The notes: generated from the letters alone by a model not told the origin. Positions 5,138-60,019 are shown, numbered from the whole stretch's first letter. The stretch: DNA of 63,775 nucleotides, filler included, from Candidatus Tectimicrobiota bacterium (GCA_016193065.1; 10 parts of 10 records of this genome joined end to end with filler, not necessarily neighbours in it); one strand, 5' to 3'. Numbers and translations: made by a program.

Positions 5138-5270
5138 TTTCGTGGTTCGACAAGCCTGTCCTGCACCCGGAAGCCGGGTACCCGGTCGAAGGGCTCACCA
5201 CGAACGGAGAAACTTCCAGAATTTCAATGCGTGATCCGTTCGCTCTGAGCGTGTCGAAGGGCGAGCGGAG
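5138..5270. repeat. Pair of inverted REP-like repeats (TTCGAC..CTCA..CGAACGGA type); first copy contains a 22-nt micro-element
   Basis: TTCGTGGTTCGACAAGC...GTCGAAGGGCTCACCACGAACGGA and TCCGTTCGCTCTGAGCGTGTCGAAGGGCGAGCGGA. Confidence 0.65.
5163..5184 (+). repeat. 22-nt micro-element GCACCC-GGAAGCC-GGGTACCCG
   Basis: Exact reverse complement at 38159-38180; same architecture at four other loci. Confidence 0.8.
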
Positions 5271-5382
5271 GGTTTTTCGGCAACCTTCTAATGAAAAGCA
5301 GGCTTGACAACCGTGTCCCCTGCCGAGAGATACTGCTAAGGTAAGGAGGTTTCGAAATGACCCGGGGAATCAGGAGGTCAAC

Positions 5383-5799
5383 ATGCTCGATTTCACCACC
5401 AAATTCGGCCGGCGGGTAAACCGGCGCCTTCGTCAGGAGCAGATTATCTGGCTGACGACTGTTGACTCGAACAACGTACCTCTGCCAAGACCGGTCTGGT
5501 TTCACTGGGATGGCGAGACGCTCCTGATCTTCAGCGAAGAGGACAGGGCCAAGATCCGGCACATCGCCCGGAACCCGAAGGTCTCGCTGAATTTCAACAC
5601 GGATGAGGAGGGCGGCGATGTCGCTGTCCTCGTGGGAAAAGCCAGAGTTCTGGAGGAACCACCTCCTCAGACGAGAGTCAAGGCTTATCTCAGAAAATAC
5701 AAGAAAGGGCTGAAGGATCTGGGAATGACCTCGGCCGCGTTCACGGGTTCATATTCGGTTCCTATCGTTGTTACCCCGAAGGACATGCGGGGTTTTTGA
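5383..5799 (+). CDS. PPOX-class (pyridoxamine oxidase-like) F420-dependent oxidoreductase family
   Basis: IIWLTTV, PRPVWFHWDG, KIRHIARNPKVSLNF; AGGAGG RBS. Confidence 0.85.
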   Translation: MLDFTTKFGRRVNRRLRQEQIIWLTTVDSNNVPLPRPVWFHWDGETLLIFSEEDRAKIRHIARNPKVSLNFNTDEEGGDVAVLVGKARVLEEPPPQTRVKAYLRKYKKGLKDLGMTSAAFTGSYSVPIVVTPKDMRGF

Positions 5800-5802
5800 A
5801 TC

Positions 5803-6270
5803 ATGGAAGTCGCTGGCTGCACGATGGAGGATTTTCACCAGATCGTTTCCCATATTGCCGAGTTCTGGGGGAGTGACCGGACGCTGCACTTGCACCACCC
5901 CATGTTCGTCCACGAGTTTGGCGATACGGCCTACGTTGTGAAGGACGGGTCCGACGTGGCTGCCTATCTTTTCGGTTTCCTTTCCCAGACCGAGCCCACG
6001 GCCTACGTGCATCTGGTCGGGGTCCGAACACCGTACCGAAGGCGGGGGCTCGCTCGGCAGCTCTACGAGCACTTCATTTCCGTTGCGCTATCCCGAGGCT
6101 GCAAGAAGCTCAAGGCGATCACGACGCCGGGAAATCTCGGATCGATTGCCTTCCACCGGGCGCTGGGGATGGAGATGATCGGGACGGCGAACGAGCAGGG
6201 CATCCCGGTCGTTCGCGATTATGCCGGACCGGGTCAGGGCAGGGTGGTGTTTGTGAAGGACCTTCTCTAG
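5803..6270 (+). CDS. GNAT family N-acetyltransferase
   Basis: VHLVGV..YRRRGLAR acetyl-CoA motif; N..SIAFHRALG. Confidence 0.9.
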   Translation: MEVAGCTMEDFHQIVSHIAEFWGSDRTLHLHHPMFVHEFGDTAYVVKDGSDVAAYLFGFLSQTEPTAYVHLVGVRTPYRRRGLARQLYEHFISVALSRGCKKLKAITTPGNLGSIAFHRALGMEMIGTANEQGIPVVRDYAGPGQGRVVFVKDLL

Positions 6271-6309
6271 GCTCGGCAGAGCGGACACATCGGAAGGAGG
6301 GGGAAGAAG

Positions 6310-6858
6310 ATGCGCTGGGAATTCGAGCCGGGGCACAGCGCGGCGGAGTTCTGCTGCCGACATATGATGGTGACGTGGATCCGGGGTCACTTCAAGAACG
6401 TCCGGGGCTCCCTGGAGTTTGATCCGCAGGCTCCGGACAAGTCCTCGGTGCGCGCCGAGATGGACGGCGCCGCCGTGTGGACGGGAGAGAAGGACCGGGA
6501 CGAGCATCTTCGGGCGGCGGCTTTTCTGGACGCCGGGATCTATCCCAAGATCACGTTCGAGAGCAAGAGCGTGGACGTCCTCACGGCCCACGAGTGGCGA
6601 GTCAACGGAGACCTCACGCTCCGGGGAGTCACGCGTCCGGTGACTCTGAAGACCCAGTATCTCGGCCAGTGGGAGACGCCCTACTGGGAAGGAGGCGCCG
6701 ACAGAGGTCCGGTGATCCGCGCGGGCTTCTGCGCCACCACCGTGATCAACCGCCACGATTTCGGCGTGAGCTGGAATGCCCTGATGGACAGAGGAGGCGT
6801 CGTCGTGGGAGACGAGGTGTACATCACGTTGGACATCGAGGCGCTGCGCAAAAAATGA
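6310..6858 (+). CDS. YceI family protein
   Basis: HS.AEF..RHMM, RDEHLR..FLD..YP.ITFES, GDLTLRGVTRPV. Confidence 0.92.
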   Translation: MRWEFEPGHSAAEFCCRHMMVTWIRGHFKNVRGSLEFDPQAPDKSSVRAEMDGAAVWTGEKDRDEHLRAAAFLDAGIYPKITFESKSVDVLTAHEWRVNGDLTLRGVTRPVTLKTQYLGQWETPYWEGGADRGPVIRAGFCATTVINRHDFGVSWNALMDRGGVVVGDEVYITLDIEALRKK

Positions 6859-6890
6859 CATGGGATTTTGGAATACCCGGACTTGTCTTA

Positions 6891-6982
6891 CCGTCATTCC
6901 GGCGCAGGCCGGAATCCAGTCTTGCCTTTATCACCTCGGCCCGAGGCTGAAGACCTGGATTCCCGCTTACGCGGGAATGACG
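6891..6982. repeat. Inverted pair of GTCATTCC..GGAATCCAG REP-like repeats
   Basis: CCGTCATTCCGGCGCAGGCCGGAATCCAG ... CTGGATTCCCGCTTACGCGGGAATGACGG. Confidence 0.75.
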
Positions 6983-7002
6983 GAGGGAGAAGATAAAGAA
7001 AA

Positions 7003-7126
7003 TGGGCGCAATGAATGCGCCCCTGGACCGGAATCGGATCCTCCCAATGTAGGGACGCGATTTATCGCGCCTTCATTTTAGAGGAAGAAGAGAAGCAAAG
7101 AGGGCGCAGCAAGCGGCGCCCCTACA
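7003..7126. repeat. GTAG-type REP palindromes (cluster)
   Basis: GTAGGGACGCGATTTATCGCGCC and inverted AGGGCGCAGCAAGCGGCGCCCCTAC; also GGGCGCAATGAATGCGCCC. Confidence 0.7.
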
Positions 7127-7324
7127 TGGGGAACGAGCTGATTCACTCCCGGATTGCCGTCCCCGACTACTATTTTCGGGGACGGGTCTTGCGCGGGGTT
7201 GACGAAGTTAAGGGAAAAGGCCGTATGATGATTCCAGGTTTACCTGCTTGCCGGCTTGTGTTAAATTAAGGCCCGTCCAGCCGGAGTGCCCGGACCCGCG
7301 CGTAGTACCACCAAGTGAGGTTTC

Positions 7325-9433
7325 ATGGATTCGAACAGCACATTTGTCATCGGCAGCGATACGGGGGGTACCTTCACGGATATCACGGTCCTCACCGATC
7401 AGGGTGAGATCTTCATGGACAAGGCCCCCACGACCCCCCACGATTTCTCCATCGGCGTCATGGACGCCATCGACAAGGTGAGCCAGGGAATGGGGCTTAC
7501 CCGCGAGGATCTCTTGCGTCGCTCTGTCATGGTCAAACACGGCAGCACGGTGGCCACCAACGCCCTGATCACCCGGGAAGGCTCCAAGGTCGGCCTGATC
7601 ACGACCCGCGGCTTTGAGGACACGACCCTGATCATGCGGGCCATCGGGAGAGTGGCCGGCTTGAGCGAAGAAGAGATCAAGCATCAGGCCACGGCGGTAA
7701 AACCCGAGCCCATGGTGCCGCGGGAACTCATCAAGGGAGTTACGGAACGCGTGGATTCCCAGGGGAAAGTTGTCATCCCCGTGAACCAGGACGAGATCCG
7801 CGAGGCCCTGCGCTGCCTGGTGGAGGAGCACCAGGTGCAGGGGATTGCCGTGAACTTCCTCTTCGGGTTCTCAAATCCCGCTCACGAGCTTGCCGTCCGG
7901 CGCCTCTTCCAGGAGATGTATCCCGGCAGCGACATTACGCTCACTTGCAGCCACGAGATCTGCAAGACGATCCGGGAGTACTCCCGCAGCAACACGGTGA
8001 TCATGAACGAGTTTTTAGCGCGCACCGTGCACAACTATGTGAGCCGGCTGGGCCGCCAACTGGCCGAGTCGGGCTATCAGCGCCCACTTCTGGTTATGCA
8101 GGCCAATGGCGGGGTCGTGCATCCGGACGAGATGGTGCCCGTGGGTACGATCAGTTCCGGCCCATCTGGCGGAGTCATCGCCAGCAAGTTCGTGGCCGAC
8201 ATCCTGGGCCATAAGAATGTGGTGACGACGGACATGGGCGGCACCAGCTTCGACGTGAGCCTGCTGATCGATGGTCACTGGCGCAACATGCTGGACTCCA
8301 TCGTGGAGCGCTTCCATGTGAGCTGGCCCATGATGGACATCCAATCAATCGGCGCCGGGGGCGGCACGATTTCCACGGTCGACCCGGTGACGGGCCAGCT
8401 CCGGGTGGGACCCAAGAGCGCCGGGGCGGCTCCTGGCCCGGTCTGTTACGGAGCCGGCGGGCAGCACCCCACGATCACCGACGCCGACTTGATTCTCGGG
8501 CTTCTGGACCCCGACTACTTCCTGGGCGGCCGCATGAAGCTCAACAAGGCCCTGGCCGAGAAGGCCATGCGGGAGAAAATTGCCGAGCCCCTGGGGATGG
8601 ACGTAGTGGAGGCAGCGGCCGGAATCTACGAGATCATCAATGCCTCCATGTCCGACCTGATCCGCAAGCAGGTCGTCACCACAGGGCGGATTCCTGCTGA
8701 GTTCGTCATCTACTCGTTCGGGGGCGCGGGACCGGTACACGCCGCCGCCTACGGCGCGGAGCTCGGCGCGTCCAAGTGTTATATCTTCCCCATGTCTGCG
8801 GTGTTCTCGGCCTTTGGCGTGGCGGCGGCGGACATTATCATGAGCCACCCGGAGACCTTCCGCCAGCGGCTGCCCGTGGACCCGGAGGTTCTCAACCGGA
8901 AGATCGAAAGCGTCGAGTCCGAGCTGCAGGCCGCCATCGAGCGCCAGGGGATCCGTCGGGAAGACATCAGCTTTCGCCGAACTTTTTATATGCGCTACGG
9001 GAAGCAGCTCAATGACCTGGAGATCCAGGTTCCCACCAAGCGCTACACGGAAGAAGATATCCAGGCCATCATGGCACTCTTCGAGCGCAAATATGAGGAT
9101 GTGTACGGCCACGGCAGCGGCTACCGGGAGGCGGGCATCTTGCTGATCTCTTTCAACATCGAGGCGATTGGTGCCACCATCAAGCCCCGGCTCGCTACGG
9201 TGCCGAGCAACGGCAGTCGCAGCCCCGAAGGAGCCGTCAAAGGAAAGAGGTTGGTCTACTTCCCCAAGGTCGGGGACTTCGTGGAGACCCGTGTGTACGA
9301 TTATCTCAAGCTGAAGGCCGGACACGGACTCGAAGGGCCGGCCATTGTGGAAACGCCGATCACCACGATCATCATACCGCCTCAAGCCACGGCGGTGGTC
9401 GATTCGTATCTCAACATCGAGATGGTGATCTAG
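7325..9433 (+). CDS. Hydantoinase A/oxoprolinase family protein (ATP-dependent amidohydrolase/carboxylase subunit)
   Basis: DTGGTFTD, STVATNAL, DMGGTSFD, SIGAGGG, GPKSAGAAPGP. Confidence 0.93.
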   Translation: MDSNSTFVIGSDTGGTFTDITVLTDQGEIFMDKAPTTPHDFSIGVMDAIDKVSQGMGLTREDLLRRSVMVKHGSTVATNALITREGSKVGLITTRGFEDTTLIMRAIGRVAGLSEEEIKHQATAVKPEPMVPRELIKGVTERVDSQGKVVIPVNQDEIREALRCLVEEHQVQGIAVNFLFGFSNPAHELAVRRLFQEMYPGSDITLTCSHEICKTIREYSRSNTVIMNEFLARTVHNYVSRLGRQLAESGYQRPLLVMQANGGVVHPDEMVPVGTISSGPSGGVIASKFVADILGHKNVVTTDMGGTSFDVSLLIDGHWRNMLDSIVERFHVSWPMMDIQSIGAGGGTISTVDPVTGQLRVGPKSAGAAPGPVCYGAGGQHPTITDADLILGLLDPDYFLGGRMKLNKALAEKAMREKIAEPLGMDVVEAAAGIYEIINASMSDLIRKQVVTTGRIPAEFVIYSFGGAGPVHAAAYGAELGASKCYIFPMSAVFSAFGVAAADIIMSHPETFRQRLPVDPEVLNRKIESVESELQAAIERQGIRREDISFRRTFYMRYGKQLNDLEIQVPTKRYTEEDIQAIMALFERKYEDVYGHGSGYREAGILLISFNIEAIGATIKPRLATVPSNGSRSPEGAVKGKRLVYFPKVGDFVETRVYDYLKLKAGHGLEGPAIVETPITTIIIPPQATAVVDSYLNIEMVI

Positions 9434-9442
9434 GAGAGCAGG

Positions 9443-9613
9443 ATGGTCAACGGGACAACCAAGATCCGCAGCATTGAGGCCCTCGATCCGGTCAAGTACG
9501 AGATCTTCCGCCACCGCATCTTCAACATCCTGGAAGAAGGGCGGATCGCCATGCGCATGGTGTCGGGTTCGCCCGTCGTCGTGGAAGGAGGGGAGACCCT
9601 GTGCTCGTTTTAC
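9443..9613 (+). CDS. Hydantoinase B/oxoprolinase family subunit (5' fragment)
   Basis: DPVKYEIFRHRI...EE...SGSPVVVEGGE; follows the A subunit. Confidence 0.8.
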
Positions 9614-9713
9614 NNNNNNNNNNNNNNNNNNNNNNNNNNNNNNNNNNNNNNNNNNNNTTAATTAATTAANNNNNNNNNNNNNNNNNNNNNNNNNNNNNNN
9701 NNNNNNNNNNNNN
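9614..9713. other. Contig-join linker
   Basis: N-TTAATTAATTAA-N. Confidence 0.98.
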
Positions 9714-9744
9714 CCTCCCTTCAAGCCACCAAGCAAAACGCCGC

Positions 9745-9819
9745 CGGTCGCGGACTGGAATTCAGCCGCCCCTGCGGAGCGCAGCGGAGCAAGGGTAAGC
9801 TGGAATGATTTGTTAGGAC
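9745..9819 (-). mobile_element. attC-like integron cassette recombination site (R' core degenerate)
   Basis: Minus strand GTCCTAAC-AAATC-ATTCCAGC...CCGCTGCGCTCCGCAGGGGCGG-CTGAATTCCAGTCCG, downstream of the 626-codon ORF; the expected GTTRRRY is replaced by GCGACC. Confidence 0.65.
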
Positions 9820-9829
9820 AAGAAACAGG

Positions 9830-9878
9830 ATCAGAGTCGATTGATGATCCAGCATACCTCGTGAAATCGACTCTGATT
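9830..9878. repeat. 13-bp inverted repeat between ORF stop and attC
   Basis: ATCAGAGTCGATT ... AATCGACTCTGAT. Confidence 0.6.
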
Positions 9879-9901
9879 CCATGTTTCCCCTGGTGCTATA
9901 C

Positions 9902-11779: not shown

Positions 11780-11894
11780 TGGAGTTCCCCCCTCATTCAG
11801 GCTGTGAAAACGAACACGTTTATCAGGCAGTAGACAGAAAGGAATGTGGCCAAGAGCCATCGCCTTCTTGGTGGCATCCCTCGTTCGGTCCAGA

Positions 11895-12084
11895 TTATGG
11901 CATCTCTCCCCCCTGGACTCCCCTTCCGCCATGATTCAACAGGAGCGTATAGTTCATCGTCGTCGTCACGTCCTTTTGTCCGAGCAACTCCTGGACGGTG
12001 CGGATAACGGCACGAATTGGTAGCCGCTCCAGGTTGAGAATTTGGAATAGTATGGAGGGAATGAGGATTCCCGAAGGCTTCCAC
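11895..12084 (-). pseudogene. intI: Integron integrase remnant, copy 1 (internally deleted)
   Basis: N-terminal VEAFGNPHS...LERLPIRA fused to C-terminal IRTVQELLGQKDVTTTMNYTLLLNHGGRGV, the IntI-type tail. Confidence 0.8.
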
Positions 12085-12195
12085 GGCCTTGCCCCCCTCT
12101 GCCGGATCGGAAGCATTTCGGAGCAAACTGCAAACACAGTATACTGTCGAGATAGCCAGTAGAATAGCTCTGGTTGACATGGGTGTCAAGGAAAA
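12013..12195 (-). repeat. Promoter/leader repeat copy 1 (TTGACA-N17-TATTCT, RBS, intI start)
   Basis: Imperfect direct repeat of 13536-13722; shared blocks ATGGGTGTCAAGGAAAA, TGTCGAGATA, ATTTCGGAGCAA, GGCCTTGCCC. Confidence 0.8.
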
Positions 12196-12244
12196 AGGAA
12201 TTCGGTATTTGGAGTAATGAGAACCGTAAACCGGGCCGACATGG

Positions 12245-12466: not shown

Positions 12467-12519
12467 GCTGCTTTTCCTCCGCTCAAGCTGCTGTGCAGAC
12501 TGTGCGTGCAGTTACCGCC

Positions 12520-19263: not shown

Positions 19264-19565
19264 TCCTGAGCAATGCTCCCCAGAGCCCGATCCTCTAGCT
19301 CGGGCAGCGCGCTACCCGAAACCACGGCGGGCACCGCCGGGGAATTGATCTCGCGATCCAAGCTCTCCAGAGCGATGCTCCCCAGAGCACGATCCTGCCG
19401 ACTCCACATCGCGCTTTCCTCGACCGTGGTGGAAACCGCCGGGGAAGCAATCTCCCGATCCAGGCTCTCCTGAGCGATGCTCCCAAACTCTGCCCAGGCA
19501 CTGGCAGCCCCAAGAATCAGCGCTGCCGCTACCGCCAAACCCCAAAGACCTTTGCCTAACTTCAT
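19264..19565 (-). CDS. Secreted GSIAQ/SLDREI tandem-repeat protein, paralog A (3' truncated by contig end)
   Basis: Signal peptide MKLGKGLWGLAVAAALILGAASAWA-E; repeats GSIAQESLDREI / GSIALESLDREI / GSIAQ; GGGAGG RBS. Confidence 0.8.
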
Positions 19566-22617: not shown

Positions 22618-22761
22618 TGTCTGATCATCCTCCGAGTATGAGTCTCCCGACCCTCTAGCCAGCCCCGTTTGCCTCTTGTCTATTGAGATGAAAGCCGCCC
22701 GAGAAGGATTCAGAGAGATTCCTTCAACCCGGTCAGGATGAGGGAAATAGCACAAGCCCGC

Positions 22762-23070
22762 TCAAAGTGGGGGGTAGCGCTCCCACATCTTCTCGTTCAG
22801 AAAGCGCTTCAGCCGCAGGCGGATCTCGGAGGGCATGCTGTCGCAGGAAATCTCCCGGCTTAAGTCAATCGTCTGCCGGTAGGTCCTCATCATCGCGAAA
22901 CAGTTTGGGCAATCCGTAAAATGAGAATCGAGTCGGGCGCGATCCCCGCCAAGCATGGTTCCGTCCACGTAGTCGATGAGCAGCCGCGTAAGAGCCTCGC
23001 AAGAAATCCCCCTGGTCGCCAGAAGCCAGCAGCCTAAGCTGCTCCACAATTTTCTAAACAGGCTAAACAT
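22762..23070 (-). CDS. zf-HC2 zinc-binding anti-sigma factor (orphan copy)
   Basis: C..LTRLLIDYVDG...HFTDCPNC (HxxxCxxC). Confidence 0.88.
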   Translation of the reverse strand: MFSLFRKLWSSLGCWLLATRGISCEALTRLLIDYVDGTMLGGDRARLDSHFTDCPNCFAMMRTYRQTIDLSREISCDSMPSEIRLRLKRFLNEKMWERYPPL

Positions 23071-23164
23071 CGCCGCCCACTCCTGCTTCGTTTCTTTTGG
23101 ATAGCCCGGACCGGCCGGATACTGAGAACGGAGTCCGGCTCCCGCAACGTGTGAATCTTCTGCG

Positions 23165-23200
23165 AAGAAGAAAAAAGGGGGCCCCGAAGGGCCCCCCGGA
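23165..23200 (-). terminator. Rho-independent terminator after repeat-protein paralog B
   Basis: GC-rich GGGGGCCC-TTCG-GGGCCCCC stem-loop followed by a T-run on the minus strand. Confidence 0.85.
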
Positions 23201-23209
23201 GATTGGCAG

Positions 23210-23536
23210 CTAGCTGATCTCCCGATCCAGACTCTCCTGAGCAATGCTTCCCGGAGCCCGATCCACTAGCTCGGGCAGCGCGCTACCCGAAACCACGGCG
23301 GGCACCGCCGGAGAATTGATCTCCCGATCCAGACTTGCCTGCGCGATGCTGCCCGGGCCTCGGTTCTGCCGATCCCATACCTCGCTTGCGGGCACGGTGG
23401 CGGAAACCGCCGGGGAGTTGATCTCCCGATCCAGACTCGCCTGGGCGATGCTTCCAAACTCTGCCCAGGCACTGGCAGACCCAAGAACCAGGACCGCCGC
23501 AACCGTCAAACCCATCAGACTTTTTCCTGCCTTCAT
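23210..23536 (-). CDS. Secreted GSIAQ/SLDREI tandem-repeat protein, paralog B (108 aa, complete)
   Basis: Signal peptide ending ASAWA-E; three GSIAQ(A/E)SLDREI units; AGGAGG RBS; own terminator. Confidence 0.85.
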   Translation of the reverse strand: MKAGKSLMGLTVAAVLVLGSASAWAEFGSIAQASLDREINSPAVSATVPASEVWDRQNRGPGSIAQASLDREINSPAVPAVVSGSALPELVDRAPGSIAQESLDREIS

Positions 23537-23690
23537 GACCTTCCTCCTAGTTAATCTGTTTGTTGAGTCTCGCTCTCCCGGCTCTATCGCCAGGTTCACT
23601 TACTTCTTGCCTACTAAGATGAAAAAGATCCGGGAAGGATTCAGGAATTTTGCAGATGGGTCGGGATGACGGAACAGAAGAAGGACCAGA

Positions 23691-23999
23691 TTAAAGAGGG
23701 GGGTAGCGCTCCCACATCTTCTCGTTCAGGAAGCGTTTCAGGCGCAGGCGGACCTCGGAAGGCATGCAATCACTGGAAATTCCCCGGCTTAAGTCGATCG
23801 TTTGCCGGTAGGTCCTCATCATCGCGAAACAGTTGGGGCAATCCGTGAAATGAGAATCGAGTCGGACGCGGTCCCCAGCCGGCATGGTTCCGTCCACATA
23901 CTCGATGAGCAGCCGCGTAAGCTCCTCGCAACGAATCCCCCTGGCCGCTAAAAACCACCAGCCCAGGCTGCTCCACAATTTTCTAAACAGGCTAAACAC
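23691..23999 (-). CDS. zf-HC2 anti-sigma factor
   Basis: CEELTRLLIEYVDG...HFTDCPNC; near-identical to 22762-23070. Confidence 0.88.
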   Translation of the reverse strand: MFSLFRKLWSSLGWWFLAARGIRCEELTRLLIEYVDGTMPAGDRVRLDSHFTDCPNCFAMMRTYRQTIDLSRGISSDCMPSEVRLRLKRFLNEKMWERYPPL

Positions 24000-24619
24000 C
24001 GCCTCCCTCTCCTGTTTCGGGCTGCCGGTTGCCCGCATCGGTCAGATACCGGGAGAGGTTCTCCCGTACAAACAGACGCGCCCGATGCAGCCGGGACTTT
24101 ACCGCAGCTACCGACAGACCGCAAATTTGTCCCACCTCCTCGTTGCTCAGACCATCGACATCTTTCAGGAGCAGGACTTCCCGATACTCGCCGGGGAGCT
24201 TTTGAATGGCCGCATCCAGGTGCCTGGCCAGTTCCTTGCTCAAAGCCCCGCCTTCCACCCGGTCCGTCCAGTCCTCCACGGGTCCCGAACCGGGGCATGT
24301 AATCGTCCAGGGAAACCGTGGCTTCTTGTTCCTTCTTGCGCCCCCGGAGCTTCAGGTAGCAGAGATTTTTGGCGGTGGTGAAAACCCATGGCAGGAAAGA
24401 GCCCGGTTCCCTCAGCGTGCCAATCTTCTCCAAAATGGTAACAAAGACCTCCTGGAGTACCTCCTCGGCGTCGGCGCTGTCGCCCGTCATTTTCAGCGCG
24501 TAGTAGTAGAGCTTCTCCTGGCACTGCTCCAGGATAGACTCTAGCGCCGTCTTATCCCCGGATTGGAGTCGCTTGACAGCCTCGGCGAGGGTCGCACTAA
24601 CCTGCATATCCTTGACCAT
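23992..24619 (-). pseudogene. ECF sigma factor, frameshifted by a net 14-nt deletion near 24286
   Basis: DAEEVLQEVF (region 2) and LSNEE...VKSRLHRAR (region 4) lie in different frames; intact paralog has MPRF-NRGHI-GAVEDW. Confidence 0.85.
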
Positions 24620-28034: not shown

Positions 28035-28269
28035 CAGAGTACCCCCTCTACTCCAACTCTACGCAGACTCAATTCCGGATTCGATGGGAATCGAGTTTTC
28101 GCCTGATCGCATTGCGGAATAAGGTTACGATACCTCCTCGCCGGAACAATGTCCAGGGTCCTCCGGGAAACATCCGGAGCCGCGATCTTGCGGAGCGCGG
28201 GGAAGAATAAAAGGTTTTTGGCCGGGTAATGCTGCGTGGGGAAGAAAAAGAACCAGATCGAGGGAAGGA

Positions 28270-28566
28270 TCAGCGCTCCTGTATTTTCTCCTTCAGGAAG
28301 CGCTGCAGGCGCAGGCGGACCTCGGAGGGCATGGAGTTGTTGGAAACCCCCCGGCTCAAGTCAATCGTTTGCCGGTAGGTTCTCATCATCGAGAGACAGT
28401 GGGCGCAGTCCTTGAAATGAGCATCGAGCCGGGTGCGATCCTCGGCGGGCAGAGTACCATCGACGTAGCCGATGAGCAGCCGAACCAGTTCCTCGCAACT
28501 GACTCCACGGGCCGCTGAGAACCAGCAGCCCAGTGTATCCCGGACTTTCTTCAGCAAGTTGAACAC
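28270..28566 (-). CDS. zf-HC2 anti-sigma factor
   Basis: CEELVRLLIGYVDG...HFKDCAHC. Confidence 0.88.
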   Translation of the reverse strand: MFNLLKKVRDTLGCWFSAARGVSCEELVRLLIGYVDGTLPAEDRTRLDAHFKDCAHCLSMMRTYRQTIDLSRGVSNNSMPSEVRLRLQRFLKEKIQER

Positions 28567-28571
28567 TGTCC

Positions 28572-29198
28572 CTACTCCCAGCTCGCCTGCTTTGTCCCCG
28601 CACCGGTCAGATACTGAGAGAGATTCTCCCGTACAAACAGGCGCGCCCGGTGCAGCCGGGATTTTACCGCAGCCACTGACAGACCGCAAACCTTTCCCGC
28701 CTCCTCGGCGCTCAAGCCTTGGACATCTCTGAGGAGCAGGATTTCCCGGTACTCGATGGGGAGTTTCTGAATGGCCGCATCCAGGTGCCTGGCCAGTTCC
28801 TTGCTCAGTGCCCCGCTCTCGACCCGGTCCGACCAGTCCTCCACGGCCCCTATGTGCCCGCGGTTGAACCGGGGCATGTAGTCCTCCAAGGATACTGTGG
28901 CATCTTGATCCTTCCTGCGCCCCCTGAGCTTCAAGAAGCACAGATTCTTTGCGGTGGTGAACACCCATGGCAGAAAAGAGCCCGGCTCCCGCAGCGTGCC
29001 GATCTTCTCCAGCACCGTAACAAAGACTTCCTGGACAACCTCCTCCGCGTCCGCGGGGTTGCCGGTCATTTTTAAGGCATAATAGTAGAGGCGCTCCTGG
29101 CACTGCTCGAGGATAGACTCCAGAGCCGCCTTATCCCCGGATTGCAGTCTCGTGACGGCCTCGATGAGGGTGTCGGTGTTTTGCGGATTCCTTGCCAT
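28572..29198 (-). CDS. ECF RNA polymerase sigma factor (intact)
   Basis: DAEEVVQEVF, FLPW, LP.EYRE.LLLRD, VKSRLHRAR. Confidence 0.93.
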   Translation of the reverse strand: MARNPQNTDTLIEAVTRLQSGDKAALESILEQCQERLYYYALKMTGNPADAEEVVQEVFVTVLEKIGTLREPGSFLPWVFTTAKNLCFLKLRGRRKDQDATVSLEDYMPRFNRGHIGAVEDWSDRVESGALSKELARHLDAAIQKLPIEYREILLLRDVQGLSAEEAGKVCGLSVAAVKSRLHRARLFVRENLSQYLTGAGTKQASWE

Positions 29199-30455: not shown

Positions 30456-30602
30456 CTGATCCCCCTCCTTTCTCCCTTTGCCTTCTCTACGATTGCTTGG
30501 CCGGTTTGGATTTCCTGCCCTCAAAAGATTAAACTGGCGTTTACAGATGGACTCGCAACGCGGCTCTTCCGGCTCACTCACGCCGAAAGCTCTTCGGGAG
30601 CC

Positions 30603-30642
30603 GCACCCATAGGATGGGTACCCGCATCCTGGGTGTGGGCAC
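30603..30642. repeat. Nested micro-element (GCACCC-ATAGGAT-GGGTACCCG inside an inverted ACACCC-AGGAT element)
   Basis: Flanks are the reverse complement of 55358-55386. Confidence 0.75.
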
Positions 30643-30754
30643 TCCCGAAGATGCCGAATAGGAACTGGGGGTGGGCAAGGTCTCCAGTCTTATTGACAGA
30701 TGCGAAAGGTCTGTGCTAGGGACAGACGCCAGAGGACCGGATCAAGGAGGCCAG

Positions 30755-36688: not shown

Positions 36689-39593
<2,905 letters not shown>

Positions 39594-52620: not shown

Positions 52621-52720
52621 NNNNNNNNNNNNNNNNNNNNNNNNNNNNNNNNNNNNNNNNNNNNTTAATTAATTAANNNNNNNNNNNNNNNNNNNNNNNN
52701 NNNNNNNNNNNNNNNNNNNN
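52621..52720. other. Contig-join linker
   Basis: N-TTAATTAATTAA-N. Confidence 0.98.
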
Positions 52721-53859
52721 GCTGGGGCGCGGCCCCCGGGGCCGAACGGCGGCGCGCGGCCTACGCATTCCTCGTCTACACGGTGGTCGGGTCCCTTCCG
52801 ATGTTCCTGGCGATACTGGCGCGCCTCGAATACGCGGGGACGGTTTTGGGCGAGTGGTCGGCCCCCTGGGGCCTCTTCCGTTGCCGCGTAGAGTCGCTCC
52901 TCTTCTTCGCCTTTCTCCTGGCCTTCGCCGTAAAACTCCCCGTCTGGCCCCTCCATGCCTGGCTTCCCGACGCCCACACGGAGGCACCCACGGCGGGCTC
53001 CGTGATTCTGGCCGGGGTCTTGCTGAAGATGGGCGGATACGGGTTCCTGCGCTTCAACCTGGCCATGTTTCCCGAGGCCTCGCGGTATTTCGTCCCCCTG
53101 ATGGTCATCCTGGGGATCGTCGCCATCATTTACGGCGCCCTGGTCTGCCTGGCGCAAGGAGATATGAAGCGCCTGATTGCTTTCAGCTCCGTGAGCCACA
53201 TGGGGTTTGTAATCCTGGGCATGTTCGTCTTGAACGAGCAGGGTCTGCTGGGAAGCCTCCTGTACATGATCAATCACGGACTTTCCACCGGAGCCCTCTT
53301 CCTCATCGTGGGCATCCTCTACGAGCGCCGGCACACCCGCATGATCGCCGACTTCGGGGGGCTCTCCAAGCAGCTTCCCGTTTTTGCCGTCTTCTTTGCC
53401 ATCGCCATGCTGTCCTCCATCGGCCTGCCGGGCTTGAACGGCTTTATCGGCGAGTTTCTGGTGGTCGTGGGCGCCTTCAAGAGCAGCATGCTGTACGCCA
53501 TCCTGGCCGTGAGCGGGATCATTCTGGGAGCCGCCTACATGCTCTGGCTTTTCCAGCGCACCATGTTCGGTACGCTGGACAAGGAAGAGAACCGCACCTT
53601 GAAGGACTGCAACGTGCGGGAAGTTTTCTATATGCTCCCGCTCGTCGTCTTTATGTTCTGGATCGGTCTTTACCCCAAACCGTTCCTGCAGGTGATGGAG
53701 CCTAGCGTCCGGCAACTGGCGGCCCGCTACCAGGTTGCGCCGGTCACCCCCGCGGCGGCTCTACAACCCCCCTCCGGCGGCGGCCCGGGTGTCGTGAAAG
53801 AAGCGCCGGCGGGTGAGCCGGTTGGAGAGCAACCTTCCACCCGGGAGGTAGGCCGGTAA
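52721..53859 (+). CDS. nuoM: NADH-quinone oxidoreductase subunit M (5' truncated)
   Basis: VKLP.WPLHAWLPDAHTEAPT, LLKMGGYG, FSSVSHMG, GLPGLNGFIGEF. Confidence 0.92.
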
Positions 53860-55345
53860 TGGAACTCCTCTTTCCGCCGCTTTCCGATCTCATGCTGATT
53901 GCTCCCGAGCTGGTGCTGACGATCGGTATTTGCCTGGTTCTTGTTGCGGACCTGTTTGTTCCCAAACCCCGCAAGAGTCTTCTGGGAGTTCTGAGTCTGA
54001 TCGTAGTTCTGGCCACGCTGCTGGCGAGCTTCCCTCTGCTGCGGACCCGGGGGGAGGCCTTTGCAGGAATGATGCTCCTGGACGGCTACGCCATGTTCTT
54101 CAAGGTGGTCTTCCTGCTGGTCACGGGCCTCACGATCCTTATCTCTTTGCGTTACATCGCCGTCGAGGACATCAACCTGGGCGAATACTACGGGCTCCTG
54201 CTGTTCGCCACTCTGGGAATGATGATCATGGCAGCCGGGGGGGACTTGATCTCCATCTACCTGGGCCTGGANNNNNNNNNNNNNNCCTGGGCCTGGAGCT
54301 CTTGTCCATTTCCTGTTACGTTCTGTGCGGGTTCATCAAACGGGATCCCAAGTGCGTGGAGGCTTCCCTGAAATTCTTCCTGGCCGGCGCTTTCACCTCC
54401 GGGGTGCTTCTATACGGCATGGCCCTTCTCTACGGTCTCACGGGGTCGACCAACTTGGGGGAAATCTCCCGGTATCTGAGCAGCCAGGACCTGTCCGGCA
54501 GTCCGGTCCTCATGCTGGCAATGGTGATGCTGGTGGCGGGTTTCGGCTTCAAGATTGCGGCCGTCCCGTTCCACATGTGGGTCCCGGATGTCTATGAGGG
54601 GGCTCCCACTTCGGTGACCGCCTTTCTGTCCACGGGCTCCAAGGCAGCCGGCTTTGCGGCGGTCCTGCGGGTCTTCTTCTCGGGGCTGGAGGTCCTCAAA
54701 CCACAATGGATCGTTCTCCTATGGGTCTTGTCCGCGCTGACCATGATCCTGGGCAACGTAGTGGCCGTGGCGCAGAGCAATATCAAGAGGATGCTGGCCT
54801 ATTCCAGCGTGGCTCACGCGGGGTATGTGCTCATGGGTTTTGCGGTGGGCAACGAGCGCGGGCTTTCGGCGGTCCTCTTCTATACGCTGGTGTACGTTTT
54901 CATGACCCTGGGAGCCTTCAGTATGGTGATCCTCATTTGCCGGCGGGGCCACCGGGGGGATCAGATCGAGGACTTCAAGGGCATGGCCCGCTCGAACCCC
55001 GTTGCCGCGTTCGTTTTCGTCCTCTTTCTCCTGTCCCTGGGAGGGATCCCCCCCACCGCCGGATTTGTCGGGAAGCTCTATCTGTTTGCGGCGGCCATCG
55101 AGGAGAAATTTTACTGGCTCGCCCTCATCGGAGTGGTCACCAGCGCCATCTCCATTTACTACTACTTCAAGGTGGCCATGGTGATGTACATGCAGGGAGA
55201 AGGAGGCGCGCGCGAGATCTCGCTTTCTCCCGCGCTCTTGTCCGCGCTGGGGATCATGGTTCTGGGAACGCTGCTGGTCGGCATCTACCCGGGGCCGTTT
55301 CTGGAAGTCGCCCGCTCCTCCGTCTTCCCCCTGATCGGATTCTAG
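53859..55345 (+). CDS. nuoN: NADH-quinone oxidoreductase subunit N (split only by a scaffold gap)
   Basis: LGLELLS, FKIAAVPFHMW.PDVYEGAPT, KRMLAYSS, GIPPTAGF.GK; CCTGGGCCTGGA duplicated either side of gap 54272-54285. Confidence 0.93.
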
Positions 55346-55363
55346 GAAGAGACCACGGTGCCC

Positions 55364-55383
55364 ACACCCAGGATGGGTACCCG
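55364..55383 (+). repeat. Micro-element variant ACACCC-AGGAT-GGGTACCCG
   Basis: Un-nested form of the locus at 30603-30642. Confidence 0.75.
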
Positions 55384-55450
55384 GCTCACGAAGCGCTTGC
55401 GACGTGAATTGTGTGGGCCGGATTGAGAGTTCTCTTCCTCGCAACCGCTT

Positions 55451-55550
55451 NNNNNNNNNNNNNNNNNNNNNNNNNNNNNNNNNNNNNNNNNNNNTTAATT
55501 AATTAANNNNNNNNNNNNNNNNNNNNNNNNNNNNNNNNNNNNNNNNNNNN
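55451..55550. other. Contig-join linker
   Basis: N-TTAATTAATTAA-N. Confidence 0.98.
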
Positions 55551-55907
55551 CGAACAAAGCTCGGAATTCACAAAATTCCCTCGATGTTGGAGTACAAGAG
55601 CCCGACGACTCTGGATACCCCGGAGATCATCACGATGCTGGTGGAAAACGGAGATCCGGAAGGACCCTATGGAGCCAAGGAGGCGGGGCAGGGGCCGCTG
55701 CTTCCCGTGCCTCCTGCTGTCGTCAACGCCGTTTACGACGCCGTGGGAGTGCGTATTGACGAGGTCCCCATTACTCCGGACAAAGTGGTCAAAGCCCTGG
55801 AAGCCAGGGCCAAGGGGAGGGTGCTCAAGCCGATCTCAGTTCCAACGATGAGCTATCCGGAACCGGTCCGTTGGTCCCCCAGCCAGATTGCGGTCGGGGT
55901 AAAATAA
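55551..55907 (+). CDS. hcrA: Xanthine dehydrogenase-family molybdopterin subunit, 3' end (4-hydroxybenzoyl-CoA reductase alpha-like)
   Basis: DPEGPYGAKEAGQG..LP..PAVVNAVYDAVGVRI...PITP. Confidence 0.65.
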   Translation, partial: RTKLGIHKIPSMLEYKSPTTLDTPEIITMLVENGDPEGPYGAKEAGQGPLLPVPPAVVNAVYDAVGVRIDEVPITPDKVVKALEARAKGRVLKPISVPTMSYPEPVRWSPSQIAVGVK

Positions 55908-55931
55908 GAAGCCAAGGGAGAGAAACTTTTT

Positions 55932-56951
55932 ATGCTGCGACTTCCCCCTTTTCGCTACATCGCTCCTGCTTCCGTGGACGAGGCGGCCCGGATACTGGCC
56001 GCGCATGGCCCCGAGGCCATGGTGGTGGCGGGCGGGACGGACCTCTATCCCAACATGAAGCGGCGCCAGTTCACTCCGAACGTCCTCGTTGGGCTCAGGG
56101 GCTTGAGAAGCCTCAAGGGAATCCGCGGGGACAAGAAATCGGGGATCGCGATGGGAGCCGGCACCACGCTGACGGAAATCAACGAAGATCCCCGCATCCA
56201 GGAGATGTATCCGGCTCTGGCAAAGGCGGCCGGGTGGGTTTCGACGCCGCAACTGCGCAACATGGGAACCATTGGCGGGAACATCTGCTTGGATACCCGC
56301 TGCAACTACTACAACCAGAGCTACTTCTGGCGGAAGGCCATCGGTTTTTGCATGAAAAAGGACGGAGACATCTGCTTGGTAGCTCCGGGAAGCCCGCGCT
56401 GCTGGGCCATCTCCTCCTCGGATACCGCTCCGGTCTTGACAAGCCTGGGGGCGTCGGTGACCCTCCAGAGCAGCCGGGGGGAGCGGCAAATTCCCGTGGC
56501 CTCCCTGTTTCGAGATGACGGAATCGAGTACCTGGCCAAAGCACCCGATGAGATTCTGGTCGGCGTGAACCTGCCTCCGATCAATGGTCTCAAGTCCACC
56601 TACTGGAAGCTGCGCCGGAGGGGCTCCTTCGATTTCCCGGTGCTGGGCGTGGCTGCCGCTATTTCCCTGGATGGAAACGGCCGGTGCGAGGACGCGCGTA
56701 TCGTCCTTGGCGGCGTGGGCAGCGAACCCCACGTCTGCAAGGAAGCCCAGGAAATGCTCCTCGGCAAAAAGCTTACGCCGGAAATCATCGAGGCCGTGGC
56801 AGAGGTGGCATCAAAACCTTCCCGACCCCTGGACAACTCCGACCTGGATCACGGCTACCGCAAGCGCATGACCCGGGTTTTCGTGACCCGGGCCTTGAGG
56901 GAGCTGGCCGGTCTCCCGATTCCCAGAATGGGTGCTCCTTACGATTTGTAG
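55932..56951 (+). CDS. hcrB: 4-hydroxybenzoyl-CoA reductase beta-like FAD subunit with [4Fe-4S] insert
   Basis: AGGTDL, RNMGTIGGN, Cys insert LDTRC..YNQS..WR....C.K..G..C...RC, RRRGSFDFP. Confidence 0.75.
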   Translation: MLRLPPFRYIAPASVDEAARILAAHGPEAMVVAGGTDLYPNMKRRQFTPNVLVGLRGLRSLKGIRGDKKSGIAMGAGTTLTEINEDPRIQEMYPALAKAAGWVSTPQLRNMGTIGGNICLDTRCNYYNQSYFWRKAIGFCMKKDGDICLVAPGSPRCWAISSSDTAPVLTSLGASVTLQSSRGERQIPVASLFRDDGIEYLAKAPDEILVGVNLPPINGLKSTYWKLRRRGSFDFPVLGVAAAISLDGNGRCEDARIVLGGVGSEPHVCKEAQEMLLGKKLTPEIIEAVAEVASKPSRPLDNSDLDHGYRKRMTRVFVTRALRELAGLPIPRMGAPYDL

Positions 56952-56964
56952 CCTGGTTCCCTTG

Positions 56965-57462
56965 TCATTGCACCTCGCCAAGACCCTGATCGGGAATGAC
57001 AGGATCAGGGTCTTGGCGATCCCGGCGGCGGTCCTGGCGGTCCTCTCTCAGGTCCCGGCGATCGCGCCTGGCGTCCCGGCGATCCCGGCGGAGATCCCGC
57101 ACGTCTTCTTTGAGTTCGCGGCGGTCGTTGCGGATTTCCTGCTTATCGTCACGGATCTCCTGACGGTCCTTGCGGGTACCCGCCTTGCGGGTGTCCTCCT
57201 TGCTGGCCCCGCTCCGAATATCTTCCCTTAGTTCCTTGCGATCTTCTCGCAGTTCCTGTTTGTCTTTGCGGAGCTCCTGGCGGTCGCGCTGAATTTCCCG
57301 GCGGTCCTGCTTCATTTCCTGGTGATCCCGCTTTACTTCGCGGGCATCCCGGCGCACCTCCCGGCCCCGTCCCTTCTCGGCGGCTGCGGAAGCCGTGAAC
57401 AGGGCCAGAGCGATGCAAGCTACGGAAAAGACAAGCGAAACGGATTTGCTGCTGGGTCTCAT
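56965..57462 (-). CDS. Secreted Arg/Asp/Glu-rich heptad-repeat protein
   Basis: Signal peptide then many DRRELRE-like heptads. Confidence 0.8.
   Translation of the reverse strand: MRPSSKSVSLVFSVACIALALFTASAAAEKGRGREVRRDAREVKRDHQEMKQDRREIQRDRQELRKDKQELREDRKELREDIRSGASKEDTRKAGTRKDRQEIRDDKQEIRNDRRELKEDVRDLRRDRRDARRDRRDLREDRQDRRRDRQDPDPVIPDQGLGEVQ
57173..57194 (-). repeat. 22-nt micro-element inside the heptad-repeat CDS
   Basis: ACACCC-GCAAGGC-GGGTACCCG, within codons DTRKAGTR. Confidence 0.8.
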
Positions 57463-57578
57463 GTGCCCTCCTTAGGATAGTGTCGATGGAGGTTATTTCG
57501 GACCGGCGAGGATGCACTTTAGGGGGAAATGGGATTTACAAGGCTCAAGGTTGAAAAAAAAGGGGGTTGAAAAAAGAG

Positions 57579-57607
57579 TTGACGGGTGGAGACGGTCATG
57601 TTACAAA
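57579..57607 (+). promoter_or_regulatory. Putative trp operon promoter
   Basis: TTGACG-N17-TACAAA. Confidence 0.45.
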
Positions 57608-57635
57608 CCCCTTCATGTTTCTTTAGGAAGAGGTC

Positions 57636-57734
57636 ATGGGAGAAAGAAGCATTCATTTCCGTGATCGTGAAACCGGCTGCTGGTGGGTCTGGCGAAGCGG
57701 GAATTGCCCGGCAGCCGGCCAGGGAGAAAGGTAA
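57636..57734 (+). CDS. trpL: Trp operon leader peptide (32 aa)
   Basis: MGERSIHFRDRETGCWWVWRSGNCPAAGQGER*; AGGAAGAGG RBS; upstream of trpE. Confidence 0.85.
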   Translation: MGERSIHFRDRETGCWWVWRSGNCPAAGQGER

Positions 57735-57768
57735 GAGAACCTAGACACCACATCCTAGCCGGTTCCTG

Positions 57769-57861
57769 AAAGCCATGGGCAGTTCCCGAGAGCACATGGC
57801 TTTTTTGTTGGGCGGCACAACCGGAAAAAGCCATGGAAAGCAGATCCCATGGCTTTTTTTT
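57769..57861 (+). terminator. Attenuator: two tandem terminator-like hairpins
   Basis: AAAGCCATG..CATGGCTTTTTT and AAAAAGCCATGG..CCATGGCTTTTTTTT. Confidence 0.82.
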
Positions 57862-57890
57862 ATGATTTCGCCAAGGAATGAGGTGCCAGT

Positions 57891-59366
57891 ATGACGCCAT
57901 CGTTTTCTGAATTTTGCCGGCAGGCCCGCCGGGGGAACCTGATCCCCGTCTACCGGGAGGTACTTGCCGATCGGGATACACCTGTTTCCGCATTTTTGAA
58001 ACTGGATGGGAAGCCGTATCGCTTCCTGCTGGAGAGCGTGGAGGGGGGAGAGCGCTGGGCCCGCTACTCCTTCCTGGGGATGAATCCAATGCTCATGATT
58101 CGCAGCCTGGGCCCCGAGGCGGAAGTGTGGGAGGAAGGGGAATGGAGGCGGGTCTTGCTGGAGAAGGATCCCATGCATCTGGTCAAGGATATCCTGACCC
58201 GGTATCGTCCGGTCCCCTGCGAGGATCTTCCCCGTTTCTGGGGAGGAGCTGTTGGGTATCTGAACTATGACGTGGTCCGCTTTCTAGAAAAACTCCCCGG
58301 AACATCCCATGACGATCTGGGGTTGCCGGAGAGTTTTTTCATGGTGGGCGACACCTTGCTGATTTTTGACAACGTGACCCACAAGCTCAAGGTGATTGCC
58401 CTGGCTTTTCTGGACGGCTCTCCACTTGAGGAGGTTTACGGTCGGGCCTGCGAGAGAATCGAGGAGGTGATTGTTCGGCTCCGCAAGGCTCCGGTTCCCG
58501 ATGCGGCCCCGGTGTCCGCGGCCGGCCCCATGGTTTTGGAATCAAGTGTCAGCAAGAAGGAGTTTATGGACTCTGTGCTCCGGGCCAAGGAGTACATTGA
58601 GGCGGGGGACGTTATCCAGGTCGTGCTGGCCCAGAGGCTCGCCACGGAAACCTCAGCCCCACCGTTTGACATCTACCGGGCGCTGCGCTCCATCAACCCC
58701 TCGCCGTATATGTACTTCCTGGATGTGGGGGAGTTCCACGTCATCGGAGCCTCTCCGGAGGTGCTCGTGCGCCTCGAAGATGGCTGGGCGGAGGTAAGGC
58801 CCATTGCCGGCACCCGGCGAAGGGGAGCGACCCCGCGTGAAGACGGGGAGCTGGAGCAGGAGCTGCGCAATGACCCAAAGGAACGGGCTGAGCACATCAT
58901 GCTCGTCGATCTGGGCAGAAATGATGTGGGCAGGGTAGCGGAGGCGGGCACGGTGGCCGTGGTGGAGCTGATGACGGTGGAGCGCTTCTCCCATGTGATG
59001 CACCTGGTCAGCCACGTGCGCTCGCGGCTGCGCTCCGGTGAGGATGGGTTTGGGCTCCTGAAGGCCTGCTTTCCGGCCGGCACCGTTTCCGGTGCTCCCA
59101 AAGTTCGGGCCATGGAGTTCATCGACGAGCTGGAGCCCGTCCGGCGGGGGCTTTATGCGGGCGGTGTCGGGTATTTCGGATTTTCAGGGAACATGGAGTT
59201 TTGCATCGCGATCCGCACCATCCTTCTGGTCGGCCAGAGGGCCTATGTCGGAGTTGGGGCGGGGATCGTGGCGGATTCGAATCCCGAGGCCGAGTACGAG
59301 GAGACCATGAACAAGGGAAAAGCTATGGTGGCGGCTTTGAAAATGGCGGCGGCGGGGCTGCTGTGA
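57891..59366 (+). CDS. trpE: Anthranilate synthase component I
   Basis: [43 protein letters not shown]. Confidence 0.96.
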
Positions 59367-59374
59367 GGAAAAGT

Positions 59375-60019
59375 ATGATTCTCGTGATTGATAATTATGA
59401 CTCGTTCACCTATAACCTGGTCCAGTACTTCCAGGAACTGGGTGCTGAAGTCGTAGTCCGTCGCAACGATGCGATAACGCTGCCGGCCATACGGGCCTTG
59501 CCACTGGAAGGGATCGTTCTCTCGCCGGGCCCCCGGACTCCCGCAGAGGCGGGGATCACCCCCAAGGTAGTCTCTACCTTTGCCGGTACAATCCCCATTT
59601 TGGGGGTTTGCCTGGGGCACCAAGCCATCGGCTGGTGCTTTGGAGGCAGGATTGGCCGGGCCAGGCGCCTGATGCACGGCAAAAAATCCACGATTAGTCA
59701 CGACGGCAAGGGAGTCTTCCGGGGTCTGCCAAACCCTTTGGAGGCGATCCGCTACCATTCCCTGGCGATCCTGGAGGAAGGATTTCCTGACGAGCTCGAG
59801 ATTACTGCGAGGTCCGAAGACGGGGAGATTATGGGGGTCCGCCATCGCTCGTTTCCCGTGGAGGGCGTCCAGTTCCACCCCGAATCGATCTTGACGGAGC
59901 GGGGCAAGGATTTGCTGGCCAATTTTCTGCACATGATCGAGATGTCTTCATCACACGGAAGCCGGCACCCGCAAGGCGCGGGTACCCACGAAGCGGGTGC
60001 GGCAGGAGGAGGGGCATGA
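59375..60019 (+). CDS. trpG: Anthranilate synthase component II (glutamine amidotransferase)
   Basis: [33 protein letters not shown]. Confidence 0.95.
59965..60001. repeat. Nested micro-element in the trpG 3' end
   Basis: GCACCC-GCAAGGC-G[CGGGTACCC-ACGAAGC-GGGTGC]G. Confidence 0.8.

Follow-up and report, generated by a model that had tools for sequence, protein, structure and literature searches.

A self-nesting hairpin micro-repeat in Candidatus Tectimicrobiota and in genomes of other bacterial phyla

We analyzed a stretch of DNA of 63,775 nucleotides (filler included) from Candidatus Tectimicrobiota bacterium (GCA_016193065.1), hereafter the window, for a very short repeat that it contains. 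The repeat unit is about 20-22 nt long and reads (R)CACCC-centre-GGGTACCC(G), with nine units at six loci on five contigs and a tenth, outer unit at 38199-38230 that encloses one of the nine. The family is genuine, structured and common to several phyla. As to its nature, we give an even chance to the reading that the unit is a non-coding, non-autonomous insertional micro-repeat, similar to the repetitive extragenic palindromes (REPs) and small dispersed repeats (SDRs) of other bacteria and above all REP-like, which is moved by an enzyme acting in trans.

Frequency and hairpin structure of the unit

The window consists of 12 sequence blocks joined by runs of N and TTAATTAATTAA spacers, so its origin is a fragmented assembly. 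Within its 62.8 kb the octamer GGGTACCC occurs eight times against 0.87 expected, a count attained by none of 100 dinucleotide shuffles. The pattern [GA]CACCC.{4,7}GGGTACCC, counted on both strands, gave 7 matches, and the looser CACCC-N4-9-GGGTACCC, on either strand, gave 9, each against 0.02 expected from 60 order-3 Markov simulations; the simulated maximum for the looser pattern was 1. The hexamer GGTACC is at chance level (12 against 11.6 expected), and all eight octamers, about one per 8 kb, fall within units, so the signal is composite and not that of a restriction-type palindrome. A preliminary description of this DNA had proposed an ultra-short, self-nesting palindromic family at these six places, with mostly 7-nt centres plus shorter variants and a frequency above random; the loci, the centres, the excess and the nesting (inner unit 38208-38225 as the centre of the outer one) were all recovered.

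The fragmented assembly, and a unit at 55365 that lies 67 nt from a contig end, might point to chance or an assembly artefact. We regard that explanation as refuted: nine units stand against an expectation of 0.02, independent contigs from four sequencing runs carry the same sequences, and many unrelated assemblies, megabase contigs included, hold the unit.

Centres in the window are mostly 7 nt long, with AAGG, AGGAT and one 9-nt centre also occurring. Three subfamilies extend between unlinked places: A matches over 40 nt at 97.5% (5154-5193 and 38150-38189), B over 18 of 18 nt (30625-30642 and 55358-55375) and C over 13 of 13 nt (57181-57193 and 59966-59978). The left flank of the unit at 55365 is shared with the minus-strand unit at 30616. 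With nine units in 62.8 kb the window has about five times the unit density of the richest genome sampled, a comparison of little weight given that the window is not a random sample.

The full layout is C-[ACCC xx / loop / xx GGGT]-ACCC-G. Because the variable centre is self-complementary, the single strand forms a hairpin of 5-8 bp, in which ACCC pairs with GGGT and 1-4 variable pairs extend the stem up to a loop that is mostly 3 nt long; a tail of ACCC(G) comes after it. Sixty-four of 91 centres, drawn from 94 distinct copies in the window and in fetched loci, pair fully to a 3-4-nt loop, compared with 14.8 for shuffled centres and a maximum of 24 in 1000. When 54 copies with 7-nt centres were aligned (30 distinct rows), 92.2% of cells paired, and sliding the 3′ partner gave at most 40.6%. 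The four outer pairs are invariant, and the two inner pairs are altered on both sides in 12 cells, for example from A-T to G-C, or from C-G to G-C or T-A. Several units occupy the loop of a further outer hairpin, most clearly at 30590-30654 (DNA fold of -27.8 kcal/mol, z -5.4), and in the double units at 30604/30616 and 59966/59980 one GGGTACCC is common to both members. An attempt to read the acting strand from A.C versus G.T mismatches was dropped, as the copies with A.C belong to one lineage of related repeats.

Spread among genomes and position inside other repeats

Copies of the unit were counted in three genome samples, whose phylum names rest on the centre loci L004, L065 and L007, with the backward pattern of the unit counted per genome as a control. 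In the Armatimonadota-centred sample, 8 of 251 genomes carry 6-135 copies (G017 135, G005 111, G174 44, G143 34, G101 20, G188 12, G246 7 and G031 6; most others 0-2), with controls of 0-2, and at most 4 in any other genome. The Methylomirabilota-centred sample has 15 of 201 genomes with 10-56 copies (led by G326 with 56, G438 with 36, G301 with 34 and G414 with 27; controls 0-7), and the Chloroflexota-centred sample has 4 of 151 with 10-55 (G487 55, G511 22, G461 12 and G587 10; controls 0-2). Two Nitrospirota genomes and five of other groups hold 0-1 copies. Dominant centres number one to three per rich genome and are all hairpins, and identical 19-mers (centres GCAAGC and ACAAGT) reappear in different phyla. 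The unit is present in at least three phyla besides that of the window, and its strong enrichment in sampled genomes there disposes of the idea that the family is private to this genome. Viral contigs gave four exact matches to one 19-mer, as single copies. A further genome of the Methylomirabilota-centred sample, G435, matches the backward control pattern 21 times and the forward pattern not once, and this looks like a different repeat family with mirror-image word order.

The copies listed for G487 have unrelated flanks, except for three in a REP-like context, and have in common only a 5′ purine and a 3′ G; judged by these flanks, it is the bare unit that is dispersed. Elsewhere several larger repeat families carry it in a minority of their copies, most often within the loop of a hairpin. 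This is clearest in G005. Among 21 copies of its REP family 1, 14 are plain (3-nt loop in the second hairpin, the form that flanks a gene for a REP-associated tyrosine transposase, RAYT), 3 carry a 19-21-nt piece, 1 carries the piece plus a unit and 3 are other forms. REP family 2 (10 copies) has 5 plain copies, 3 with a 19-nt piece and 2 with piece plus unit, and family 3 (15 copies) has 8 plain, 2 with exact units, 2 with degenerate units, 1 with another insertion and 2 that are not comparable. The 19-nt piece is itself unit-like, being a hairpin plus tail (ACCCC, loop, GGGG, then the tail) at the 5′ side of the loop of the second hairpin, and it was located around position 1540-1580 of L302, L310, L318, L322 and L323, in two RAYT-type REP families. 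Its position is exact, directly after the last base of the stem and before the loop, in two copies of family 1 and one of family 2. The exact 19-nt insertions (L302, L310 and L318) show zero bases replaced and zero duplication, and the other three carrying copies, L322 and L323 among them, have 1-3 base differences in the piece or the loop.

Repeats of about 230-250 nt that resemble miniature inverted-repeat transposable elements (MITEs) contain the unit in G002 and in G327/G301; their ends are CTAGTGC..GCACTAG in G327/G301. Single copies of these repeats occur with or without an extra unit, with 4-7 bases replaced. The MITE-like repeats themselves (L230-L249 in G327 and G301; L082, L085 and L088 in G002) have inverted ends and an outer stem with compensatory changes, number at least 14 copies in a 1.7-Mb metagenome-assembled genome (MAG), and gave no Rfam match for the G002 copies.

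Window loci, orthologous sites and candidate enzymes

The units of the window are listed in Table 1. Three of the six loci are clearly intergenic, two are read in frame, and the one at 55365 has no family-matched open reading frame (ORF) over it. A sigma-54 activator gene stops at 38143 and a glmU-like domain starts at about 38245, and the spacer between them is filled by the cluster at 38159-38230.

Table 1. Units of the repeat family in the window and their surroundings
Feature	Position	Strand	Sequence	Context
Unit, subfamily A	5164..5184	+	CACCC GGAAGCC GGGTACCC G	Inside an outer hairpin; intergenic, Sir2 (-) / PNPOx (+)
Double unit	30604-30624 (+), 30616-30636 (-)			Between divergent cupredoxin and ECF sigma genes
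Outer hairpin, 9 bp	around 30604..30636		Arms CTTCGGGAG / CTCCCGAAG	Holds the double unit in its loop
Unit, subfamily A	38159..38180	-		First member of tandem cluster
Outer unit	38199..38230	-	GGGTACCC ... GGGTG	Centre is the whole inner unit (self-nesting)
Inner unit	38208-38225	+	CACCC AAGG GGGTACCC G	
Unit, subfamily B	55365..55383	+	GTGCCCA CACCC AGGAT GGGTACCC G	
Unit, subfamily C	57173..57194	-	CACCC GCAAGGC GGGTACCC G	In frame within ORF 56965-57462 (-)
Double unit	59966-59988 (+), 59979-60000 (-)			In-frame C-terminal tail of trpG

The 165-amino-acid product of the ORF at 56965-57462 (-) begins like a signal peptide, contains about 15 xRxDxxE heptads (21-nt period) and belongs to no Pfam family; the unit at 57173-57194 lies in the sole stretch that breaks the heptad pattern (..KEDTRKAGTRKDR..). 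The glmU-like gene at 38140-39593 lies in two frames, with the start of the nucleotidyl-transferase domain (about 50 positions, residues 36-83) in ORF 38140-38592 and the rest in ORF 38391-39593, as from a frameshift or assembly error near 38390. The window also has direct repeats of 250-300 nt at 73-87% identity (22757-24586 / 28253-29165 and 19264-19563 / 23235-23534), which are probably paralogous genes or a duplicated cluster.

At the trp locus the stop of trpG overlaps the ATG of trpD at 60016, as it also does in the two nearest relatives. By trpE, trpG and trpD the nearest genomes are Methylomirabilota MAGs (56-57%, 68% and 66-68% amino acid identity, respectively), and the nearest metagenome contigs reach 72-76% for trpD. 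After ..NFL the trpG tail is 29 amino acids long in the window and 10-11 in the two closest relatives. None of the 17 relatives read (5 genome and 12 metagenome loci) has the unit at its trpG-trpD junction, GGGTACCC occurs in none of the 13 closest metagenome loci, and the unit occurs in none of 80 metagenome loci.

The family behaves as an insertion would that favours hairpin loops and short spacers. If the unit is moved in trans, new copies would insert where DNA is exposed as a single strand, mainly in hairpin loops that already exist, namely those of REPs, MITE-like repeats and intergenic hairpins as well as the unit's own loop. Multiplication of a host repeat would then passively multiply the copies resident in it. 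Tight operon junctions and in-frame, non-essential parts of genes would tolerate the unit because it is short and has no stop in the frames seen. We infer that the differences between filled and empty sites are insertions rather than deletions, and that a sequence-specific enzyme recognizes the fixed ends of the unit; the fixed ends, the patchy phyletic spread and the identical units in unrelated flanks argue for such an agent in trans. Our first guess for it is a Y1/HUH (RAYT-like) enzyme, a guess to which we attach a rather low probability. We also speculate, tentatively and well short of an even chance, that hairpin micro-elements of about 20 nt copy themselves into hairpin loops and in frame into genes by means of a hairpin-specific, single-stranded DNA enzyme, as yet undescribed and distinct from both RAYTs and Ssn nucleases.

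Several results weigh against a unit that moves. Logan contigs from four groundwater runs of one study, with about 1% other differences, cover 57174 and 59966-99 without gaps, so there is no strain-level polymorphism at either unit. With the 17 relatives, this makes the unit fixed in close strains and absent in distant relatives; the trp relatives are distant (at most 76% amino acid identity), so the longer trpG tail may have other origins. Several filled and empty pairs among the paralogous repeats are unclean, with a few bases replaced, and presence or absence there could equally reflect hairpin deletion. Most copies in G327, G301, G324, G002 and G188 are parts of longer repeats, so copy number in those genomes needs no mobility of the unit itself. 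The insertion-like behaviour proposed in the preliminary description stands for the empty trpG-trpD junctions of 17 relatives and for the minority of filled paralogous repeats, and no strain-level empty site was found. Separately, one Logan contig (run X1, 55551-61119) joins 60003 to 57173 through 27 other letters that resemble a subfamily-A unit; it may be an artefact of the graph or reflect one more tandem cluster at another place in the genome.

Fixation among strains, together with the compensatory changes that maintain the hairpin and the position of units in short operon spacers (trpG-trpD in the window; beside rpsC and around folB-folK elsewhere), would also fit a cis-acting signal kept by selection, in which the hairpin is bound by a conserved protein or acts in mRNA as a stabilizer, processing site or pause site. 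We consider this very unlikely. Units point either way with respect to genes, and they lie in divergent promoter regions, in frame within ORFs, and nested in themselves and in other repeats; most genomes of the same phyla are without the unit, and at the gathering score Rfam has no match in the window or in nine further loci.

The state of the paralogous repeats bears on another alternative, in which there is no dedicated enzyme and the unit is a very stable hairpin cassette. Template switching or gene conversion at stalled forks would pass it from one GC-rich hairpin repeat to another, and REPs and MITEs would then carry it along. The insertions do fall at hairpin loops without target duplications, with ragged boundaries and a few bases replaced, composites of the 19-nt piece and the unit recur in different outer stems, and most copies in several genomes are passengers. 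Identical fixed-end units of 19-22 nt in three to four phyla and in unique flanks are hard to obtain without sequence-specific recognition, however, and the distribution is patchy within each phylum, with most genomes holding 0-2 copies. We therefore think this process improbable, if less so than a selected signal.

The search for an enzyme adds to the points against movement in trans, at least by the enzymes looked for. The preliminary description placed the mobilizing enzyme outside the window, and this agrees with our searches: tblastn with three Y1 proteins found no Y1-like sequence in the window, and Pfam scans of the neighbouring ORFs gave ordinary genes only. It had further suggested, among other candidates, co-occurring RAYT/HUH or GIY-YIG genes, for which no association emerged, with one exception among the Y1-like loci. 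In G084 the only two copies of the unit lie in 131-nt inverted arms (77% complementary) around a 154-amino-acid Y1/RAYT-like ORF, whose translation shows the HUH and Y motifs of Y1 transposases, and the arrangement is that of a REPtron. Among about 80 Y1-like loci in 60 genomes, sought by family and with the G084 protein, this one alone is flanked on both sides by the unit; the counts of loci not so flanked were 20 (two of them with a unit on one side), 15, 26 of 27, 16 and 7. PF01797 gave no hit in G327, G324, G301 and G326, which hold 16-56 copies of the unit, a result to be read with the possible incompleteness of MAGs, and it is equally present in five unit-free genomes. RAYT-like genes are found in 6 of 8 unit-rich and in 38 of 243 other Armatimonadota-centred genomes (Fisher p = 0.0005), an enrichment that may be indirect because the unit there lives inside RAYT-type REPs. 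The E. coli RAYT cleaves between C and T according to PMC3333891, and the clean 19-nt insertion lies 1-2 nt 5′ of a loop CT, not at that step. At 29 of 30 GIY-YIG loci in 10 unit-rich genomes there is no unit nearby, the sole exception being a weak match (L370, E 2.6e-4). Genes enclosed by inverted pairs of units (rpsC; folB-folK-deoxynucleoside kinase; a DUF1003 protein) are ordinary or housekeeping ones, and no Y1 remnant was seen in the 472 nt that separate the two members of an inverted pair in G005. The GTAG at the hairpin foot that marks REPs is present at none of the six window loci, where the fixed flank is GGGT/ACCC and GTAC is buried in GGGTACCC.

The G084 locus is an argument for a classical REP. 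On that view a single RAYT (TnpA-REP) lineage would have the unit as its cognate REP, guided by the tetranucleotide GTAC instead of GTAG; its Y1 enzyme would cut and rejoin the unit, and the gene would be lost or unassembled in rich genomes. PMC8266576 describes one REP group, in Stenotrophomonas, of 23-nt perfect palindromes with 3-nt loops, and a change from GTAG to GTAC that re-targets cleavage in one RAYT; the greater frequency of RAYT-like genes in unit-rich Armatimonadota-centred genomes points the same way. Set against this are the single flanked locus among about 80, the RAYT homologues of G005, G017, G188 and others, which have different REPs in their arms, and the four rich genomes without a PF01797 hit. 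G188, a single contig of 7.6 Mb with 12 copies, has no flanked RAYT, and G005 holds the unit within loops of RAYT-type REPs, not as the REP itself. Together this leaves the classical REP unlikely, and we continue to prefer a REP- and SDR-like micro-repeat that inserts through some agent in trans.

To our knowledge the origin and spread of REPs, SDRs and the dRS3/NTS repeats are largely open, and only two enzyme families have been tied to such repeats. The fixed 5-nt and 8-nt ends and the occurrence in at least three phyla mean that a census of all genomes could reveal a gene that travels with the unit, and the clean filled and empty pairs among paralogous REP copies, with insertion at the 5′ side of the loop, offer a mechanistic clue. 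In the window a 20-nt hairpin lengthens a trp enzyme across a translationally coupled junction and interrupts a repeat protein in frame, and since units are tolerated in frame they are a source of small protein variation. The family is likely to be one reason why such assemblies break into small contigs. The enzyme is the main prize: were it such an undescribed hairpin enzyme acting on single-stranded DNA, no smaller mobile DNA of wide distribution would be known, and the unit would be the first example of an SDR-like system beyond the cyanobacteria.

Comparison with known repeat systems

The literature searched, to which neither Elhai et al. 2008 nor the supplementary motif lists of PMC11893778 (29 genomes) belonged, holds no description of the unit. 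Palindromic elements of Rickettsia are about 100-150 nt long, are not known outside one genus, and lie in frame inside protein genes; the unit is likewise a palindromic repeat that can be read in frame, but it measures only 20 nt. MITEs have terminal inverted repeats and a target-site duplication and span 50-500 nt, whereas the unit has 20-22 nt and no duplication at clean insertion sites, and it is instead a component of MITE-like repeats in G002 and G327/G301. PMC5861425 describes HIP1 as an over-represented, GC-rich octamer palindrome. Octamers of this type are hyper-abundant in their own right, both in coding and in non-coding DNA. GGGTACCC fits that description, but unlike HIP1 it is not abundant on its own: its eight copies in the window are all in units, and the GGTACC core stays at expectation.

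SDRs of the Nostocaceae, reportedly described by Elhai et al. 2008, are said to be 21-27 nt long and dispersed, and to lie inside other repeats and at palindromes. We know of no protein that they encode and of no enzyme that moves them. The preliminary description had likened the unit to these repeats, and in behaviour the likeness is good: the unit has 20-22 nt, is dispersed, and is nested in itself, in outer hairpins, in REP loops and in MITE-like repeats. It goes no further than behaviour, as the unit has a different sequence and occurs in different phyla, and the nearest relatives by trp genes are Methylomirabilota and not cyanobacteria. According to PMC5861425 the HIP1 palindrome may be an insertion site of SDR5, and among HIP1-rich cyanobacteria SDR-like repeats were not found outside Nostocaceae.

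GIY-YIG Ssn nucleases are tied to the dRS3/NTS hairpin repeats in PMC11893778. As described there, those repeats share with the unit a variable centre between fixed outer arms (ATTCCC..GGGAAT in dRS3/NTS; ACCC..GGGT in the unit), oriented non-palindromic flanks, hundreds of copies and a spread over many phyla. The unit departs from them in that the GIY-YIG genes of unit-rich genomes are not flanked by it, and the degenerate pattern of Ssn-related motifs (SRMs) published there matches none of the six unit loci. The same pattern matches the window twice, at 6892 and 6955, where hairpins at 6892-6919 (+) and 6955-6982 (-) stand inverted between YceI-like and hydantoinase genes. The second is near the Neisseria NTS consensus (CGTC ATTCCCGCG TAA GCGGGAAT CCAG). 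No ssnA was seen there, given that the adjacent small ORF at 7015-7269 is without a Pfam match.

REPs normally vary between species, and the unit is unlike them in that its fixed ends and free centre are conserved across phyla. It also has no GTAG head, a feature conserved at the 5′ foot of the REP palindrome according to PMC8266576, and it can itself be lodged in the loops of different REPs, those of RAYT type; we found no RAYT in four rich genomes, and, outside G084 with its two copies, none that the unit flanks. A GTAG-headed inverted hairpin doublet with the classical look of a REP pair (REPIN) does occur in the window at 7049-7075 (+) and about 7100-7130 (-), which suggests that the window genome has a RAYT-type system as well. 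Like REPs (about 20-40 nt) and the bacterial interspersed mosaic elements that they compose, the unit is a short stem-loop palindrome in high copy number, mostly extragenic, and present as singles, inverted doublets and clusters. It resembles the 23-nt Stenotrophomonas REPs of PMC8266576 in its size and in its perfect stem with a 3-nt loop, and one RAYT gene, that of G084, lies between inverted copies. By analogy, the unit appears to work as REPs and the SDRs of Nostoc do, on a design that resembles dRS3/NTS.

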